This document shows, piece after piece, positions 23,792 to 55,695 of a stretch of DNA of 64,000 nucleotides. Origin of the DNA: Escherichia coli. Its GTDB lineage: Bacteria; Pseudomonadota; Gammaproteobacteria; Enterobacterales; Enterobacteriaceae. The notes beneath the pieces were generated by a model, which saw only the letters and a program-made list of their open reading frames with translations, was not told the origin of the DNA and ran no database searches. How positions within the stretch are numbered: position 1 is the stretch's first letter; each line of letters begins with the position of its first letter. Made by a program: the position numbers and the translations under genes. The DNA lies in assembly GCF_030013205.1 (NCBI RefSeq), contig NZ_CP122648.1. The stretch is one strand, 5' to 3'.

Positions 23792-23849
23792 TAAAAAGGG
23801 CAGCAGAGCAGTCACGGAGTAAAACTGATACCGCCAAACGTCACCAGAA
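23792..23849 (-). ncRNA. dicF: DicF small RNA (ftsZ-targeting)
   Basis: Reverse complement reads TTTCTGGTGACGTTTGGCGGTATCAGTTTTACTCCGTGACTGCTCTGCTGCCCTTTTT, between ydfC and dicB as in K-12. Confidence 0.75.
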
Positions 23850-27170: not shown

Positions 27171-27424
27171 ATTAATGGATTAACTATGTCGGTTAAACGA
27201 CCAGCCAACTGAAAAAGCGGAAACCTGATTACAGGTTGCCAGATAAGGCAATGAGCTACCTGGCGCGGAACGGACTGATAAGTATGGGGAATGTTTTACG
27301 ATGAACCTTTAGACTAAAGAGTTTGTAACGCTATGTAAGTGATTTTTTCTGGTTTAGATATTTATATGTCCGGCCAAATTGAGGTGTGTTTAAATGTAAT
27401 TGCACATTGATTGTAGGAGGAATA

Positions 27425-27604
27425 ATGAAAAACGCATTGCAGTTTTTGTTTGTTGCGTTCTGGTTGTTCGCATCATGTATGCCCATCATCTTCACAGCAA
27501 GGTATATGGAAAAAGTTGATGTTTTGATATTAATATTTGGATATATAAATGCCCTTTTTTTAGGGGTGTTCATGGCGGTCATGTGCATTGAATACTGGCG
27601 GTAA
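27425..27604 (+). CDS. small two-TM membrane protein (59 aa), function unknown
   Basis: ATG at 27425 preceded by AGGAGG 7 nt upstream; MKNALQFLFVAFWLFASCMPIIFTARYMEKVDVLILIFGYINALFLGVFMAVMCIEYWR; very AT-rich codons. Confidence 0.5.
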   Translation: MKNALQFLFVAFWLFASCMPIIFTARYMEKVDVLILIFGYINALFLGVFMAVMCIEYWR

Positions 27605-27938
27605 ATACAGCGAACTCCATTGGTTTAGTTGGATATTTACTGTGCTGGACAAAAACGGTTTGCGGGGAAATCTTAGTTAAGTAGAATGACTGCGGGTGCT
27701 TGAGGCTATCTGCCTCGGGCATGGACACCAACGGCAGATAGAGAAAAGCCCCAGTTAACATTACGCGTCCTGCAAGACGCTTAACATTAATCTGAGGCCA
27801 ATTTCATGCTAGACACATGTAGGTTAGCCTCTTACGTGCCGAAAGGCACGGAGAAGCAGGCTATTGTTAACACCAAGTTGTAATGTCCCCTTTGAACCAT
27901 TCTAAAATGTCCCCAGACAATTCTCTGGGGGATTTTTC

Positions 27939-29252
27939 ATGATCAAAGAGACTGTTACGATGAGTCATAAGGAACTCCACCGACTTCAGATTATTCAGGA
28001 ACAAGCTGCGGCACGCATTGGCATTTCTATTCGGCAGGTTAAACGTCTGGTGCAACGGTATAGAAATGAAGGGCCTTCTGGTCTGGTTTCCCACCGACGT
28101 GGAAAGCGTCCTAATAATTCCTTTTCTACTGAATTCAGAGCAACAGTAATTTCACTCCTCAAAGGCCGTTACGCTGATTTTGGACCTACGTTTGCGTGCG
28201 AAAAATTGCGCGAGATACACGGTTTATCTTTATCCGTTGAAACTCTCAGAAAGTGGATGATAGAAGAGGGGTTATGGCGTGAACGCCGTCGTAAAATTGC
28301 CCGTATATATCAACGCCGCATGCGACGACCATCTTACGGTGAACTGATCCAGATTGATGGCTCACCTCATGACTGGTTTGAAAATCGAGGCCCCAGATGT
28401 ACACTGATCGTTTTCATTGATGATGCCACCAGTGCGTTGATGGCGTTGCGTTTTGTGCCTGCTGAAACAACCCGGGCTTACATGGAAACCCTCCGGGGTT
28501 ACCTTAATGATCATGGCGTACCGCTCGCTCTCTACTCTGATAGACACAGTATATTCAGGGTAAATAACCCAGAGCGGGAAGGTGAGCTGACCCAGTTCAC
28601 TCGTGCGATAAAGACACTGGGCATCGAGCCAATCCATGCCAACAGCCCGCAGGCAAAAGGGCGGGTAGAGCGCGCCAATCAGACACTACAGGACAGGCTG
28701 GTCAAAGAAATGCGGCTTCAGAATATCAGTGATATTGAAACAGCAAATGCATGGTTGCCGACCTTTATTGAAGCCTATAACAACCGGTTCGCTACGTCGC
28801 CTCGTACTACTGATAATGCTCATCTTGATGTGCACCATTCTGAAGAGGAACTGGGTTATATCTTCAGCCTACAGGCGAAGCGCGTTCTGTCTAAAAATCT
28901 CACTTTCCAGTACAAAAGCAGTGCGTTTCAGGTACGCAGTGAGGGCCGGGGATATCGACTTAGGCATTCGGTTGTTACTGTATGCGAGAACTTTGACGGT
29001 GAAATTAACGTTCTGTATGACGGGAAAGCGCTGGGCTGGGAAAAGTATGTTGATGGCCCGGAGCCTATACCACTGGATGATGAAAAGAGTGTCCATGAAC
29101 GAGTGGATAATGCCCGTATTGATTTACGCTCAAAATACTATGTTAAACCTAAAGCTGACCATCCCTGGCTTACGCGCCGAACGCAAAGTCATCAGCAAGT
29201 TAAGCCCCCGAAGTTACCTAAAAAGAAGCCTGATCCCGATAAAAAAGATTGA
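27939..29252 (+). CDS. DDE transposase with N-terminal HTH and integrase-core (rve) domain, IS481/ISNCY-like
   Basis: 437-aa ORF; HTH IGISIRQVKRLVQRY; catalytic-looking residues in LIQIDGSPHD, LALYSDRHSIF and KGRVERANQTLQD; basic Lys/Pro-rich C-terminus. Confidence 0.8.
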   Translation: MIKETVTMSHKELHRLQIIQEQAAARIGISIRQVKRLVQRYRNEGPSGLVSHRRGKRPNNSFSTEFRATVISLLKGRYADFGPTFACEKLREIHGLSLSVETLRKWMIEEGLWRERRRKIARIYQRRMRRPSYGELIQIDGSPHDWFENRGPRCTLIVFIDDATSALMALRFVPAETTRAYMETLRGYLNDHGVPLALYSDRHSIFRVNNPEREGELTQFTRAIKTLGIEPIHANSPQAKGRVERANQTLQDRLVKEMRLQNISDIETANAWLPTFIEAYNNRFATSPRTTDNAHLDVHHSEEELGYIFSLQAKRVLSKNLTFQYKSSAFQVRSEGRGYRLRHSVVTVCENFDGEINVLYDGKALGWEKYVDGPEPIPLDDEKSVHERVDNARIDLRSKYYVKPKADHPWLTRRTQSHQQVKPPKLPKKKPDPDKKD

Positions 29253-29585
29253 AACCAAGATCGATTCGGTTGAGTGCATATCCATTCATAGGGTAGATTC
29301 TTAAGTCGCGTTTCTGGTGTTCATTTTCGGGTGGTTTGTTACTTGTTTTACCGGGGATATGCCAGAAACGCGCTGAGTCAGTCTGGGCGGTGCGCGTAAT
29401 GAGGCGTTATGGTAAATAGCCTATGCTAATGTCCGCTAAGAGCAAGAAGCGGAAGTTGGCAGTTTTGTGGACTGTCCCCACAAAAGTGACTACAGAAATA
29501 GTTGCAATTCATAATTGATCATGGGTTGTCAGTTAAACTCGTGGCGATTTAAATAGACTAATTGGGAGTGCGTCCATTACTTATA

Positions 29586-29635
29586 TCTTGTAATGTTAAC
29601 TATCAGAAATTCTTGTAATGTTAACTATCAGAAAT
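29586..29635. repeat. perfect 25-bp tandem direct repeat x2 (tcttgtaatgttaactatcagaaat)
   Basis: Read directly; each unit contains a GTTAAC palindrome; lies just downstream of the flxA terminator. Confidence 0.85.
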
Positions 29636-29676
29636 GATACAAAGATAATATGTCTTTAAAGAAAAGGCTGATGGCG

Positions 29677-29699
29677 AAAAGTGGCCCGATGAGGGCCAC
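29677..29699 (-). terminator. rho-independent terminator of flxA
   Basis: Minus-strand hairpin GUGGCCC-ucauc-GGGCCAC followed by UUUU, 15 nt after the flxA stop. Confidence 0.5.
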
Positions 29700-29713
29700 A
29701 ATACGGCTGTCAC

Positions 29714-30046
29714 TTAGACGTAAATATCAATGGTGCCAGCGGTATTTGTATCGTCTTTTTTCTCTTCTTTTTTATCAGGCTGAACTGTCGCGTCTTCATT
29801 CTTTTTCTCTGCCTGCTGCCTTAACAACTGCTCCAGTTGAGCCCAGAGGCTTTCAATTTGCTTCTGTACCAATGCAGCCATTTCTTTTTTCTGCTGTGTC
29901 GTCATCCCCTCTTCCGATGAGATTTTCCCAAGCTTTTCAGTCAGCACCTGAATTTGTCTTGTGATTTTGGCTATTTCTGATGTTCCTTCCGGGGCGGAGT
30001 TGTTTGAAATAACGGTTGAGGTATTTCCCTGAATTGTGACAGACAT
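29714..30046 (-). CDS. flxA: FlxA (FliA-regulated protein, coiled-coil, Lys/Glu-rich C-terminus)
   Basis: 110-aa ORF MSVTIQGNTSTVISNNSAPEGTSEIAKITRQIQVLTEKLG... Confidence 0.9.
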   Translation of the reverse strand: MSVTIQGNTSTVISNNSAPEGTSEIAKITRQIQVLTEKLGKISSEEGMTTQQKKEMAALVQKQIESLWAQLEQLLRQQAEKKNEDATVQPDKKEEKKDDTNTAGTIDIYV

Positions 30047-30069
30047 AGATTTCTCCTTTTAAAAAAGCA

Positions 30070-30096
30070 CTATCGGCATGCACAAAAAAATCTTTA
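30070..30096 (-). promoter_or_regulatory. sigma-28 (FliA) class promoter for flxA
   Basis: Minus strand reads TAAAGATT-N11-GCCGATAG, matching consensus TAAAGTTT-N11-GCCGATAA, about 25-50 nt upstream of the flxA ATG. Confidence 0.6.
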
Positions 30097-30248
30097 ATCG
30101 TATTTCTTGTGTCATTAATTGTTTGATGTTCAGATTGTTTTCCTCGCGGGCTGGCGCGCCTCAGAAAGTAAAGCTTGTTGACAGGGGTAAACGTTCGGCA
30201 ATAATTTTCTGCCGCATGCGGGTGTTGCATAAAACGTGTTACGTTCCT

Positions 30249-30554
30249 TTATCGACAGGTCAGGTCACCGCTCACCCGCCGACGAGAAAGCAACACTGAC
30301 ATGCTAAAGCAAAAAATAGATGAATAAGTTGAGTTGTGCATATGTAGCCTGACCGTCACAAAGTATATGGTGTCTGTACCAGTAAGATGATGGCCGGACT
30401 CTTTAAAAACGAGCTGACCTGCACAATACAGGATGGACTTAGCAATGGCTGCTCCTGGCACAAAGCGGACAGTGATCACCGTTCTTACGACTACTTTCTG
30501 ACTTCCTTCGTGACTTGCCCTAAGCATGTTGTAGTGCGATACTTGTAATGACAT
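30249..30554 (-). CDS. ydfV: hypothetical prophage protein (ydfV position)
   Basis: 101-aa ORF between flxA and relB, divergent from relB as in K-12; symbol by position and length only. Confidence 0.45.
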   Translation of the reverse strand: MSLQVSHYNMLRASHEGSQKVVVRTVITVRFVPGAAIAKSILYCAGQLVFKESGHHLTGTDTIYFVTVRLHMHNSTYSSIFCFSMSVLLSRRRVSGDLTCR

Positions 30555-30578
30555 TTGTAATTACAAGAGGTGTAAGAC

Positions 30579-30818
30579 ATGGGTAGCATTAACCTGCGTA
30601 TTGACGATGAACTTAAAGCGCGTTCTTACGCCGCGCTTGAAAAAATGGGTGTAACTCCTTCTGAAGCGCTTCGTCTCATGCTCGAGTATATCGCTGACAA
30701 TGAACGCTTGCCGTTCAAACAGACACTCCTGAGTGATGAAGATGCTGAACTTGTGGAGATAGTGAAAGAACGGCTTCGTAATCCTAAGCCAGTACGTGTG
30801 ACGCTGGATGAACTCTGA
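30579..30818 (+). CDS. relB: RelB antitoxin (RHH)
   Basis: 79-aa ORF MGSINLRIDDELKARSYAALEKMGVTPSEALRLMLEYIADNERLPF... Confidence 0.95.
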   Translation: MGSINLRIDDELKARSYAALEKMGVTPSEALRLMLEYIADNERLPFKQTLLSDEDAELVEIVKERLRNPKPVRVTLDEL

Positions 30819-31105
30819 TGGCGTATTTTCTGGATTTTGACGAGCGGGCACTAAAGGAATGGCGAAAGCTGGGCTCGACGGTACGTGAACAGTTGAAAAA
30901 GAAGCTGGTTGAAGTACTTGAGTCACCCCGGATTGAAGCAAACAAGCTCCGTGGTATGCCTGATTGTTACAAGATTAAGCTCCGGTCTTCAGGCTATCGC
31001 CTTGTATACCAGGTTATAGACGAGAAAGTTGTCGTTTTCGTGATTTCTGTTGGGAAAAGAGAACGCTCGGAAGTATATAGCGAGGCGGTCAAACGCATTC
31101 TCTGA
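30818..31105 (+). CDS. relE: RelE mRNA interferase toxin
   Basis: 95-aa ORF MAYFLDFDERALKEWRKLGSTVREQLKKKLVEVLESPRIEANKLRG...; start overlaps relB stop (ATGA). Confidence 0.95.
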   Translation: MAYFLDFDERALKEWRKLGSTVREQLKKKLVEVLESPRIEANKLRGMPDCYKIKLRSSGYRLVYQVIDEKVVVFVISVGKRERSEVYSEAVKRIL

Positions 31106-31176
31106 ACCAAAGCATGACATCTCTGTTTCGCACCGAAGGTGACACTTCTGCTTTGCGTTGACAGGAGAAGCAGGCT

Positions 31177-31332
31177 ATGAAGCAGCAAAAGGCGATGTTA
31201 ATCGCCCTGATCGTCATCTGTTTAACCGTCATAGTGACGGCACTGGTAACGAGGAAAGACCTCTGCGAGGTACGAATCCGAACCGGCCAGACGGAGGTCG
31301 CTGTCTTCACAGCTTACGAACCTGAGGAGTAA
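31177..31332 (+). CDS. hokD: Hok-family membrane toxin HokD (RelF)
   Basis: Manual translation: MKQQKAMLIALIVICLTVIVTALVTRKDLCEVRIRTGQTEVAVFTAYEPEE (51 aa); below the ORF-track cutoff. Confidence 0.85.
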   Translation: MKQQKAMLIALIVICLTVIVTALVTRKDLCEVRIRTGQTEVAVFTAYEPEE

Positions 31333-31401
31333 GAGACCCGGCGGGGGAGAAATCCCTCGCCACCTCTGATGTGGCAGGCATCCTCAACGCACCCGCACTT
31401 A

Positions 31402-31430
31402 ACCCGCTTCGGCGGGTTTTTGTTTTTATT
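31402..31430 (+). terminator. rho-independent terminator after relBE-hokD
   Basis: cccgc-ttcg-gcggg hairpin followed by tttttgtttttatttt. Confidence 0.6.
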
Positions 31431-34596: not shown

Positions 34597-34896
34597 AAAA
34601 ATTCCTTAATACTGATAACTTGGCGCACTATACACACGTTCCTGAAGAAAGCTATAGTTTTTTGATGGGGTTGAAGATGGCTGGATGTCTAAAATAAACA
34701 TTGCTTCATATGTTCAACTATGCGTTAATGATTGCGTCGGTTTGAAGAACAGACGATATACGAAGTAGTTTACTAAAGCAGTTCTCATTTCAGGTGTTAT
34801 TCACTTATTCCTTCTTTGAGTCTCTCCAATTAAGTACGAAGTCGTTTCTGTTATGCAAACCATTTATGCCGAAAGGCTCAAGTTAAGGAATGTAGA

Positions 34897-35112
34897 ATGT
34901 CAAATAAAATGACTGGTTTAGTAAAATGGTTTAACGCTGATAAAGGTTTCGGCTTTATTTCTCCTGTTGATGGTAGTAAAGATGTGTTTGTGCATTTTTC
35001 TGCGATTCAGAATGATAATTATCGAACCTTATTTGAAGGTCAAAAGGTTACCTTCTCTATAGAGAGTGGTGCTAAAGGTCCTGCAGCAGCAAATGTCATC
35101 ATTACTGATTAA
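34897..35112 (+). CDS. cspB: cold-shock protein CspB
   Basis: 71-aa [54 protein letters not shown]... Confidence 0.9.
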
Positions 35113-35475
35113 AATTCATCGCTCGTCTGTATACGATAACGAAGAAGGCTGATGCCTGAGTAGAGATACGGACAGAGTAGTGAATATTGGATCTCTTTAA
35201 TAAAAAGTAAGGAGGTCCAATACATGAAACAATGGCTAGCATATTTGGCAAAATCTTAATCAGGAAAAGTATGCTAACCATTGTGGTGAAGTGCAGGTTT
35301 GCTGAATGAATAGTTTTACAGCAGAAGCTAACTGCTGGCATGGCAAAACAAAGTGCGTAAGTGGATGACTCCCACAAAAAGCACCACAATCTCAAACCCG
35401 CTCAGGCGGGTTTTTTATTATCTGCTTTAAATATATTATTAAAATATAAAAAATACTTGTTACTAATAAAATCAA

Positions 35476-37421: not shown

Positions 37422-37782
37422 GGTAATATTAAATCGGAACATTTACATCGCGGAATGTAAAATTTAAATAAAAAGGACTCTTCCATGAGCCAAAATTCCT
37501 GAAATCTTAAGGGTAAGATAAAAGGTCTTAATCAGAATGACACGTTTTATTAATAAATAAAGCTATTCTTTCATTGCTGTGTTTTTCTTTACAAAAGTAA
37601 TCCTTGCTATGGGTGGTTAATCATGCGTTAATGGTGTTCTGGTTTGTTACAAATTTATCTGAAGCAGTCATTGTTATAATTTTATTATTTGTACCTCTTG
37701 AGATTTCCTTGTTGGTTTTTCTCTCTGATATTTTTTTCGGACCATTCTGCCCAAGGGCTAATTTCTTCAAAAGGTAATAATT

Positions 37783-37995
37783 ATGTCTAACAAAATGACT
37801 GGTTTAGTGAAATGGTTTAACCCTGAAAAAGGTTTTGGTTTCATCACGCCGAAAGATGGCAGCAAAGATGTGTTTGTCCATTTCTCAGCAATTCAGAGCA
37901 ACGATTTCAAAACATTAACTGAGAATCAGGAAGTTGAATTTGGTATTGAGAACGGACCTAAAGGTCCTGCCGCTGTTCATGTAGTGGCGCTTTGA
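37783..37995 (+). CDS. cspI: cold-shock protein CspI
   Basis: 70-aa [54 protein letters not shown]... Confidence 0.9.
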
Positions 37996-38197
37996 GGTAG
38001 ACAATATTACAAACCATATTCACTTTAGATGCCCGTGTTGTCATGGTTCCCAGTATAGAACATCATCTTTTGATGTTTCTGACATGAATCCTTTCGGGGC
38101 AAAATGTATCTTTTGTAAATCAATGATGATTACATTTGATAATATTTCACAATACTTAAATGCCAGCCGTCTGTCGTTGGATTTGAAAAAGTGAAAA

Positions 38198-43904: not shown

Positions 43905-44479
43905 TGGCATTCAGAATGAGTGAACAACCACGGACCATAAAAATTTATAATCTGCTGGCCGGAACTAATGAATTTATTGGTGAAGGTGATGCATATATTC
44001 CGCCTCATACAGGTCTGCCAGCAAACAGTACCGATATTGCACCGCCAGATATTCCGGCTGGCTTCGTGGCTGTTTTCAACAGTGATGAGTCATCGTGGCA
44101 TCTCGTTGAAGATCATCGGGGTAAAACGGTTTATGACGTGGCTTCCGGCGACGCGTTATTTATTTCTGAACTCGGTCCGTTACCGGAAAATGTTACCTGG
44201 TTATCGCCGGAAGGGGAGTTTCAGAAGTGGAACGGCACAGCCTGGGTGAAGGATACGGAAGCAGAAAAACTGTTCCGGATCCGGGAGGCGGAAGAAACAA
44301 AAAACAACCTGATGCAGGTAGCCAGTGAGCATATTGCGCCGCTTCAGGATGCTGCAGATCTGGAAATCGCAACGGAGGAAGAAATCTCGTTGCTGGAAGC
44401 ATGGAAAAAGTATCGGGTATTGCTGAACCGTGTTGATACGTCAACTGCACAGGATATTGAATGGCCAGCACTGCCGTAG
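43904..44479 (+). CDS. tfaQ: tail fibre assembly protein
   Basis: 191-aa [57 protein letters not shown]... Confidence 0.9.
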
Positions 44480-55381: not shown

Positions 55382-55429
55382 GCTCCGTTTAACATTCATT
55401 GAGAAAACTGATGCTACTGTGTCAACGAT

Positions 55430-55527
55430 CCGTTATCAGTGCAGGAAAATGCCTGTTAGCGTAAAAGCAAAACACAAATCTATCCATGCAAGCATTCACC
55501 GCCGGTTTACTGGCGGTTTTTTTTCGC
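55430..55527 (+). ncRNA. candidate small RNA ending at an orphan terminator (possibly MgrR)
   Basis: Strong + strand terminator CCGCC-ggtttact-GGCGG-T8 at 55497..55527 with no upstream ORF in the dgcZ-mgtS intergenic region; 5' end not defined. Confidence 0.4.
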
Positions 55528-55599
55528 CGTCATAAAAATCAGGCCCCTTGTACACAGTTGTAACAAGGGGCCGGTTAGGTGAGGGATTATCTCCGTTCA

Positions 55600-55695
55600 T
55601 TAGTCATCCCATTTGTGGCTGAAATACGCGGCCAGAAAACCAGAAAATAAAATTATTCCCAGTACGGCCATAAAAACATTCATATTACCCAGCAT
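55600..55695 (-). CDS. mgtS: small membrane protein MgtS (YneM, 31 aa)
   Basis: Manual translation MLGNMNVFMAVLGIILFSGFLAAYFSHKWDD with GGAGG 7 nt upstream; below the ORF-track cutoff. Confidence 0.8.
   Translation of the reverse strand: MLGNMNVFMAVLGIILFSGFLAAYFSHKWDD

Follow-up and report, generated by a model that had tools for sequence, protein, structure and literature searches.

A hokD/sok leader separated from its toxin gene by an ISEsa1-like transposon in a Qin-like prophage of Escherichia coli

What is the nature of a densely structured, non-coding DNA segment that lies directly in front of a transposase gene and carries no annotation? We pursued this question for positions 27605-27900 of a 64,000-nucleotide (nt) stretch of Escherichia coli DNA (assembly GCF_030013205.1, contig NZ_CP122648.1), which is referred to as the window. 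An earlier note, made from the sequence alone, had described the segment as one unit that might hold a small RNA (sRNA), an RNA regulating the transposase or end sites of a mobile element. The comparative data assembled here indicate with high confidence that it represents the regulatory 5′ half of a type I toxin-antitoxin (TA) locus, hokD/sok, which resides in a prophage and was split by a transposon. The interval is not one unit: positions 27605-27864 are hok/sok DNA, and positions 27865-27900 belong to the left terminal repeat of the transposon. An unannotated structured region is thereby resolved as a known RNA; the RNA is of an ordinary, already described kind and is present as a severed copy.

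The segment is identified by a covariance-model search, a check suggested in the earlier note. Positions 27694-27865 (+ strand) match the Rfam family RF01794 ('sok') with 104.1 bits, well above the gathering score of 59 (E = 1.9e-23), and the match covers the full model (positions 1-157 of 157). As the model begins with GGGUGCUUGAGG and finishes at AUG, it depicts the 5′ leader of the hok mRNA (sense strand), opposite which the Sok gene is located. A homology search by BLAST revealed that the segment is conserved independently of the transposase, the leader preceding hok in genomes free of an insertion sequence (IS) at this place. It is present in 4,323 of 5,426 complete E. coli genomes, and genomes with any leader match contain a median of 2 and a maximum of 9 copies. 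The annotated matches run into a gene called hokD or Hok/Gef, and in every one of them the homology to the window ends at query base 260, which corresponds to window position 27864; the matching DNA itself is unannotated in all four full-length matches examined (4/4). The leader is 98% identical to that of an intact hokD locus in E. coli 95-3322 (L007; compared loci are cited by such numbers where they have to be told apart), and its surroundings constitute a Qin-like lambdoid prophage with dicA, dicC, flxA, relBE, hokD and rem.

The anatomy of the leader (Table 1) corresponds to that of the plasmid R1 hok/sok locus. In R1 hok mRNA, pairing occurs between tac (G4-T6) and ucb (A70-C72); positions 104-107 form the mok Shine-Dalgarno sequence (SD) and positions 116-118 the mok ATG, and the hok ATG is found at ~176 (PMC9841398). 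Equivalents of tac, of the metastable hairpin, of the tac/ucb stem, of the mok SD and ATG and of the hairpin in front of the hok SD are recognizable in the window at positions agreeing within ~3 nt, as are an antisense Sok with a stem-loop and U-tail and, in the 3′ untranslated region (UTR) of the window hokD, the complement fbi. Counted from a hok transcript start expected near 27694, the mok SD is located at +101 and the mok ATG at +113, which fits the R1 positions. Two alternative folds are available to tac, either the local 5′ hairpin (27696-27722), equivalent to the metastable form, or the tac/ucb stem. The core of the latter is the 9-bp stem reported in the earlier note, in which CTATCTGCC (27706-27714) pairs with GGCAGATAG (27733-27741), and a repeat finder extends its arms to 20-nt imperfect ones (27695-27714/27733-27752). 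The GNRA hairpin GTGCC-GAAA-GGCAC was likewise recovered at 27836-27849, immediately followed by the hok SD (GGAG at 27850). The two ttaacatta motifs (TTAACATTA) lie at 27755-27763 and 27781-27789 as described; they form the arms of the Sok stem-loop and are not sites of an element end. The reported absence of a credible ORF also stands, because the segment contains just short open reading frames (ORFs) and a truncated mok′ frame of 25 codons (27806-27883) that is cut by the IS. The window locus differs from R1 in an 18-22-nt extension of the Sok stem (GCGTC…GACGC), which is lacking in R1-type leaders, and in its being split, with the toxin coding sequence (CDS) and 3′ UTR 3.3 kb away and Sok left without a target in cis. 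It thus displays all sequence and structure features of a hok/sok locus except a Hok/Gef CDS directly after the leader, where the transposon starts at 27865 instead, and is a disrupted member of this class.

The predicted structures are supported by folding and by comparative analysis. The sense strand of 27694-27864 folds with -64.5 kcal/mol (z = -4.56), a value reached by none of 200 shuffled sequences, and the antisense strand of 27825-27735 adopts a long hairpin with a U-rich tail behind it (z = -4.91). In an alignment of ten leaders, which includes the two distant ones L088 and L095, the Rfam structure is 77.5% paired, compared with 32-46% for controls in which the pairing partners were slid by 1-3 columns, and eight pairs are changed on both sides, which was not attained in any of 500 shuffles. 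Helix 1, the tac-stem, is 82.9% paired in 10 homologues, three of its pairs carrying changes on both sides. Of the hairpin adjacent to the hok SD, four inner base pairs are kept in 8 leaders, three of them with compensatory changes (covariation score 0.369 vs 0.108 for shuffles); its outermost G-C pair occurs in the window only and results from an A-to-C exchange at 27849. The earlier note would have given up its idea if the stem pairings were not conserved; they are kept in homologues and covary. We regard the covariation as supporting evidence and the Rfam score as the main evidence for the identity of the RNA.

Where the locus is intact, pairing of Sok with the leader prevents translation of mok/hok and brings about decay by RNase III. 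The sRNA envisaged in the earlier note is borne out in so far as the segment is a structured RNA locus combining a cis-regulatory hok leader with a Sok-type antisense RNA gene, which was placed by analogy. By the same analogy with R1 Sok, its ends are as listed in Table 1 with a start near 27814. The antisense hairpin is maintained in nine homologues via U-G/G-U pairs, whose sense-strand counterparts would not pair, and this strand specificity supports a function of the - strand. Comparison with homologues, most of which contain a TTGCCT or TTGACC as Sok -35 box, also yields the putative Sok promoter; the R1 comparison relied partly on the R1 parB sequence, and the R1-like leader L095 backs the placement. 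The exchange at 27849 mentioned above turns the usual Sok -35 box TTGCCT into GTGCCT (T-to-G at its first base).

The other half of the locus is found on the far side of the transposon in form of the hokD CDS and its 3′ UTR. The duplex between tac and this 3′ UTR (-21.5 kcal/mol) is the best of 1305 tiles in the 64-kb window and is reached by 12 of 1000 shuffles. As the best partner of tac is the very 3′ UTR in which fbi is expected, the segment and hokD appear to be the halves of one locus. The uninterrupted counterpart in E. coli 95-3322 provides the empty site: it reads '…GGCAAGGAGAAGCAGGCTATGAAGCAG…' followed by hokD and rem, with the order leader-GGAGAAGCAGGCTAT-GAAGCAG…hokD-rem and one copy of GGAGAAGCAGGCTAT. 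In the window, this exact 15-mer occurs only at 27850 and 31164, flanking positions 27865-31163, and the single copy in the empty site and two copies around the insert establish that the transposon split the locus. This leaves the leader and the Sok gene physically detached from hokD, which is found directly after relBE. The favoured course of events is as follows: the 3299-bp transposon inserted at the hok ribosome binding site (RBS) and start codon, duplicating the 15 bp of GGAGAAGCAGGCTAT; the leader and Sok gene remained on the left (27694-27864), and the hokD CDS, fbi and the terminator were shifted 3.3 kb to the right (31177-31424). As the target site duplication (TSD) copied the SD and ATG, hokD retained its own. 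The insertion also set hokD directly after relBE, which is the 'relBEF' arrangement of K-12. A weak isrK-like Rfam hit at 31341-31422 (25 bits, sub-threshold) coincides with the hokD 3′ UTR and terminator, and an isrK gene at this place was rejected on that ground.

Several points weigh against reading the segment as half of a hokD/sok locus, or at least against its Sok part. Rfam RF01794 is labelled 'sok' yet models the sense leader, and the Sok gene itself was placed by analogy. The covariation sample is small and consists of 8-10 related sequences. A generic sigma-70 scan of 27300-28000 called neither the hok nor the Sok promoter, so that both are placed by homology only; the hok -10 box is kept in the uninterrupted L007 and lies 7 nt upstream of the start of the Rfam model. 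Finally, the T-to-G change in the -35 box implies that Sok may be weakly expressed or silent.

Table 1. Position of the features of the split hokD/sok locus, the inserted transposon and further RNA families in the window (IRL and IRR, left and right terminal repeats)
Feature	Position	Strand	Evidence
Putative hok promoter: -35 TTGCGG, 16-nt spacer, -10 TAGAAT	27660-27665, 27682-27687	+	Read from sequence
hok(D) mRNA 5′ leader, cut exactly at the hok start codon	27694-27864	+	Rfam RF01794; identity with L007
tac-stem: tac (27694-27701) with ucb/anti-SD AAGCCCC (27746-27752)	27694-27752	+	Rfam consensus structure
5′ hairpin, tac paired with the sequence just downstream; presumable equivalent of metastable hairpin	27696-27722	+	Minimum free energy fold; role by analogy with R1 hok (PMC9841398)
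Sok-type antisense RNA gene, ~75 nt: single-stranded 5′ tail, stem-loop 27799-27747, tail CUUUUCUCU	27740-27814	-	Antisense fold
mok SD GAGG (27794-27797) and truncated mok′ frame, ATG at 27806, stop TAA (27881-27883) within the IS	27794-27883	+	Read from sequence
Putative Sok promoter: -35 GTGCCT (complement of 27844-27849), 17-nt spacer, -10 TAACCT (complement of 27821-27826)	27821-27849	-	Homologue alignment
Hairpin CGUGCC-GAAA-GGCACG just 5′ of hok SD (GNRA hairpin)	27835-27850	+	Conserved, covarying
Left 15-bp TSD copy GGAGAAGCAGGCTAT, hok SD through AT of ATG	27850-27864		
IS1202-family (ISEsa1-like) transposon, 3299 bp	27865-31163	+	Ends, terminal repeats, TSD, transposase
IRL	27865-27894		TGTCCCC repeats at 27884 and 27908
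Hairpin and T-run in the IS left end, overlapping the transposase SD region, upstream of ATG 27939	27910-27931	+	Terminator-like site from scan
Transposase, 437 aa	27939-29252		
Variable cargo (flxA)	29458-30451		
Right arm: ydfV′, relB (30579-30818), relE (30818-31105), IRR (31134-31163)	30452-31163		
Right 15-bp TSD copy GGAGAAGCAGGCTAT	31164-31178		
hokD CDS, other half of the split locus	31177-31332	+	Pfam HOK_GEF, 82.9 bits; hokD annotation in identical loci
hokD mRNA 3′ UTR: fbi at ~31381-31394 (CCUCAACGCACCC), complementary to tac, then terminator hairpin	31381-31424	+	
Above-threshold Rfam matches other than sok	23798-23849, 34736-35128, 37638-38022, 44247-44445, 55393-55606		

The inserted DNA is a member of the IS1202 family. 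Its transposase matches NCBIfam NF033594 (ISNCY_2) with 456 bits at a cut-off of 250, contains the Pfam domains HTH_32/29/28 and rve_3 and is ~98% identical on the amino acid level to proteins with the PGAP label 'IS1202-like element ISEsa1 family'. The element ends with TGT…ACA, and its imperfect terminal repeats match at 15/22 and 21/30 positions, the right one starting ~30 nt past the relE stop codon. Subterminal motifs are found on the left (two copies of TGTCCCC) and on the right (TGTCACC/ATGTCAT). The ISNCY_2/ISEsa1-family transposase, the TGT…ACA ends, the imperfect terminal repeats of ~22-30 bp and the subterminal repetition of an inner motif (TGTCCCC) all agree with the description of the IS1202 family, and the duplications of 15-16 bp found for window-type elements are in the range of the ISTde1 subgroup (15-17-bp repeats). 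In contrast, the published entry of ISEsa1, with which we compared the units, gives a length of 1609 bp and no detected target duplication (PMC10132070), whereas the units described here are 3.3-12.8 kb long, carry passenger genes with relBE by the right end and produce 15-16-bp TSDs, in contradiction to that entry. The window element also falls outside the definition of a simple IS (1.3-1.75 kb, transposase only) and acts as a cargo-carrying ('transporter') IS or transposon. Inspection by eye of two candidate ends, one ~1609 bp from the left repeat (near 29473-29482) and one at a perfect tandem duplication of the 25-bp unit TCTTGTAATGTTAACTATCAGAAAT (29586-29635) in the cargo upstream of flxA, showed a poor terminal repeat match (~9/22) and no TSD, and both were rejected in favour of 31163; most E. 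coli copies have one such unit (alignments of 1811 nt vs 1836 nt). This unit contains GTAATGTTAACT, corresponding to 12 nt of the Sok stem, which is probably due to chance. The hairpin and T-run upstream of the transposase start probably insulate the gene from outside read-through, a usual device of IS elements.

The context of the window supplies a molecular history for relBE-hokD, a textbook oddity of E. coli K-12. The genes flxA, ydfV, relB, relE, hokD and rem of the K-12 Qin prophage are arranged in the same order and have identical protein accessions. In K-12, however, the region from the methyltransferase to the leader, the Sok gene, the left repeat and most of the transposase gene are deleted, all of which the window retains; in MG1655 (L102), a truncated ydfX is fused to the transposase gene within its 3′ end, at the equivalent of window position ~29068. 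The window keeps the state preceding the K-12 deletion. The insertion of a relBE transposon at the hokD RBS and the later deletion of the leader half account for the position of K-12 hokD behind relBE and its lack of sok/mok control. This corresponds to the state of K-12 hokD (relF), a gene without a sok/mok control region that is co-transcribed with relBE. Pedersen and Gerdes are said to have noted in 1999 that IS elements are located near K-12 hokA, hokC and hokE and that hokD has no upstream control region. The K-12 'ydfW' ORF lies within the remaining 3′ stretch of the transposase gene (L102 2223-2685; window ~29068-29252). In genome scans, type I TA loci cut in two, with one half next to a mobile element, are to be expected.

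Judged from its present arrangement, the segment seems to be a relic. Transcription from the weak hok promoter would yield a truncated, non-toxic leader without fbi that runs into the IS, and an orphan Sok, if made from the weakened promoter, would have no target in cis and act only on other hokD-type leaders. At most, a truncated leader RNA and an orphan Sok would thus be produced, neither of which could regulate the transposase or hokD. We consider it unlikely that the remnant is instead kept by selection as a working orphan antitoxin, which would still express Sok, together with a leader RNA acting as decoy, and so counteract further hokD-type loci of the cell or those arriving on phages and plasmids. 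In favour of this view, Sok retains its stem-loop, its tail and the spacing of its core promoter, insertion-carrying strains show 98-99.7% conservation of the segment (four matches) and potential targets do exist, given the median of 2 and up to 9 leader copies in genomes with any match. The high identity among the carriers may, however, reflect recent common descent, the change in the Sok -35 box is unique to the window copy and the entire segment is deleted in K-12. Moreover, chromosomal Sok RNAs failed to inhibit the R1 hok studied (PMC9841398).

Elements related to that of the window were sought in one scan of species-representative genomes and a handful of plasmid records, which form a sample of junctions and not a census. 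The left arm of 1593 bp (27865-29457) is 99.3-99.7% identical to a 12,843-bp element on the Enterobacter plasmid pMS7884B, and the right arm of 712 bp (30452-31163, consisting of ydfV′, relBE and IRR) is 98.8% identical to the same element in a 730-bp alignment extending to 31181. This larger ISEsa1-type transposon, for which we found no published name, contains in this order the transposase, ncrYCBA, a methyltransferase, chrBA, a hupE-like gene and relBE, and was observed in two unrelated places, namely in pMS7884B (L012 and L016) and in Enterobacter sp. Ag1 (AKXM01000046 73444-86286, L017/L018). The copy of strain Ag1 lies at a non-hok site, where a perfect 15-bp duplication, GGCTTGTGATATCTG, surrounds it. 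In pMS7884B the left flank belongs to a membrane-protein ORF and the right flank to hok, and the flanks do not match. A 1308-bp derivative in Enterobacter sp. 10-1 (L099) with the variant ends TGTTAACGCC…/…GCGTTGACA and a 16-bp duplication, TATGCCTGAGCCATCA, has no full transposase and may be a non-autonomous copy resembling a miniature inverted-repeat transposable element (MITE).

The junctions of these elements with hok loci are alike in their position and different in their sequence. On the leader side, IRL follows GGAGAAGCAGGCTAT in the window, GGAGAAGAAGCCATG in Pseudocitrobacter (L088), where an Rfam sok hit of 81 bits ends at the junction, GGAGAAGTACGCTATG in Kluyvera (L101) and GGAGATGTATGGGTCC in Klebsiella and Serratia plasmids (L011, L013), the same 16-mer being found after IRR in a different plasmid (L107); in Citrobacter (L095; sok hit of 94.7 bits) the orientation is inverted and GGAGAAGAAGGCCAT is followed by IRR. 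The plasmid loci L011-L013 gave no Rfam match at the gathering threshold; in the E-value mode, sub-threshold sok hits (36 bits) abut the IS in L011 and L013, and none was obtained in L012. In pKpQIL-type Klebsiella plasmids (L011 2176-2324, L107 346-420) a hok-like leader is present and the ORF after GGAGATGTATGGGTCC (MYGSTTYCNFYSH…) does not resemble Hok; the locus may be a decayed hok locus or encode another toxin. On the CDS side, IRR is at once followed by GGAG and, 13 nt on, by an ATG in five different hok genes (MKQQKAML…, MKLPRNTLLW…, MKLPRNAFIW…, MKLPPSNLLW… and MKMPNQPIVL…). Across these five, identity amounts to 99.3-100% for the 150 nt within the element and to 29-86% for the 150 nt outside it. 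Furthermore, 456 PLSDB plasmid records contain a relE-IRR fused to a hok gene. Altogether, near-identical ends abut nine hok loci in one register, starting from the GGAG of the hok RBS; the tally of distinct sites amounts to nine hok-associated vs five non-hok ones, plus two for the variant IS. The duplicated bases at the junction itself differ between sites, which argues for independent insertions and not for a single insertion spread by recombination.

On the basis of these junctions, which make a well-supported case for hok targeting, we think it probable, with some reserve, that ISEsa1-type transposons insert site-specifically into the hok translation-initiation region. In this proposal, the TSD starts from GGAG, relBE always lies beside the right end and usually reads into hok, and each insertion would uncouple hok from Sok and substitute relBE for it; the K-12 'relBEF', the leaderless hokD and ydfW would be scars of such an event. 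In the literature consulted, site-specific targeting within the IS1202 family is described only for dif/pdif and in the 5-bp subgroup. The ISAjo2/ISAba32 subgroup offers a precedent for a defined target (dif), the preferred target here being the hok translation-initiation region and not dif/pdif. A literature search on IS1202 together with hok found no report of hok targeting. A comparison of the non-hok targets Ag1, L073, L012, L087 and L108 yielded no common motif, although some of their duplications start with GG after (C)GA.

An association with hok could also arise without any choice of target, if one ancient insertion was spread by recombination or if insertions survived preferentially where the knockout of a toxin is harmless. 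We judge this improbable. Hok loci are indeed abundant on the plasmids and prophages that carry the element, and pMS7884B-type copies with their unmatched flanks show that recombination between copies does happen. Recombinational spread, however, would not yield duplications of 15-16 bp that vary by site at the junction, nor is it readily compatible with one junction register in five hok genes as divergent outside, and as uniform inside the element, as given above, and survivorship would permit insertion anywhere in the ~400-bp locus instead of in a fixed register. If hok targeting is real, it would add to dif/pdif a second case in which elements of the IS1202 family choose their insertion site by sequence, and cargo transposons on clinically important plasmids would dock preferentially at hok genes. 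The units would bring nickel and chromate resistance to clinical Klebsiella and Enterobacter plasmids and one addiction module would displace another, with a bearing on plasmid stability and on the placement of metal-resistance cargo.

The weakest reading, offered in the earlier note and now hardly tenable, regards the segment as part of the IS, either as a transposase-regulating RNA or as binding sites at its end: the segment is immediately upstream of the transposase gene and co-directional with it, and the 12 nt of AGTTAACATTAC show complementarity to the element's 25-bp repeats (29586-29635). Against it, thousands of genomes have the same leader before hok and no IS in the vicinity, the left flanks of IS copies elsewhere are unrelated, a hairpin and T-run belonging to the IS separate the junction from the start of the transposase gene, and the element end is fixed at 27865, within the interval originally noted, by the TSD, the terminal repeats and the empty site, the comparison with which already refutes this reading. 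The 12-nt complementarity was dismissed as a chance match, about 0.3 inverted matches of this kind being expected in 3 kb by our own estimate. A control RNA of the IS10 RNA-OUT type likewise differs from the window RNA, which is positioned outside the element (boundary at 27865) and occurs elsewhere without it.

The end sequence TGTCAACGCAAAGTAGAAATGTCCCC, often accompanied by a second AAATGTCCC ~20 nt inward, is almost invariant across the elements L019-L098. Ends of the TGTCAACGCAAAGTAGAAATGTCCCC type were detected in Pseudomonadales, Betaproteobacteria, Caulobacteraceae, Planctomycetes, Spirochaetes, Nitrospira and metagenome-assembled genomes of Acidobacteria, with up to 10 copies of such elements per genome. 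This conservation of the end across phyla is unusually strong.

Just upstream of the putative hok promoter, the window contains a 59-aa hydrophobic ORF (MKNALQFLFVAFWLF…; 27425-27604, + strand), which has no Pfam or NCBIfam family match and is conserved and unannotated in L002. The further Rfam families above their gathering thresholds in the window (Table 1) are DicF, two cspA thermoregulator leaders, IS009 and STnc560, all of which fit a Qin-like prophage.

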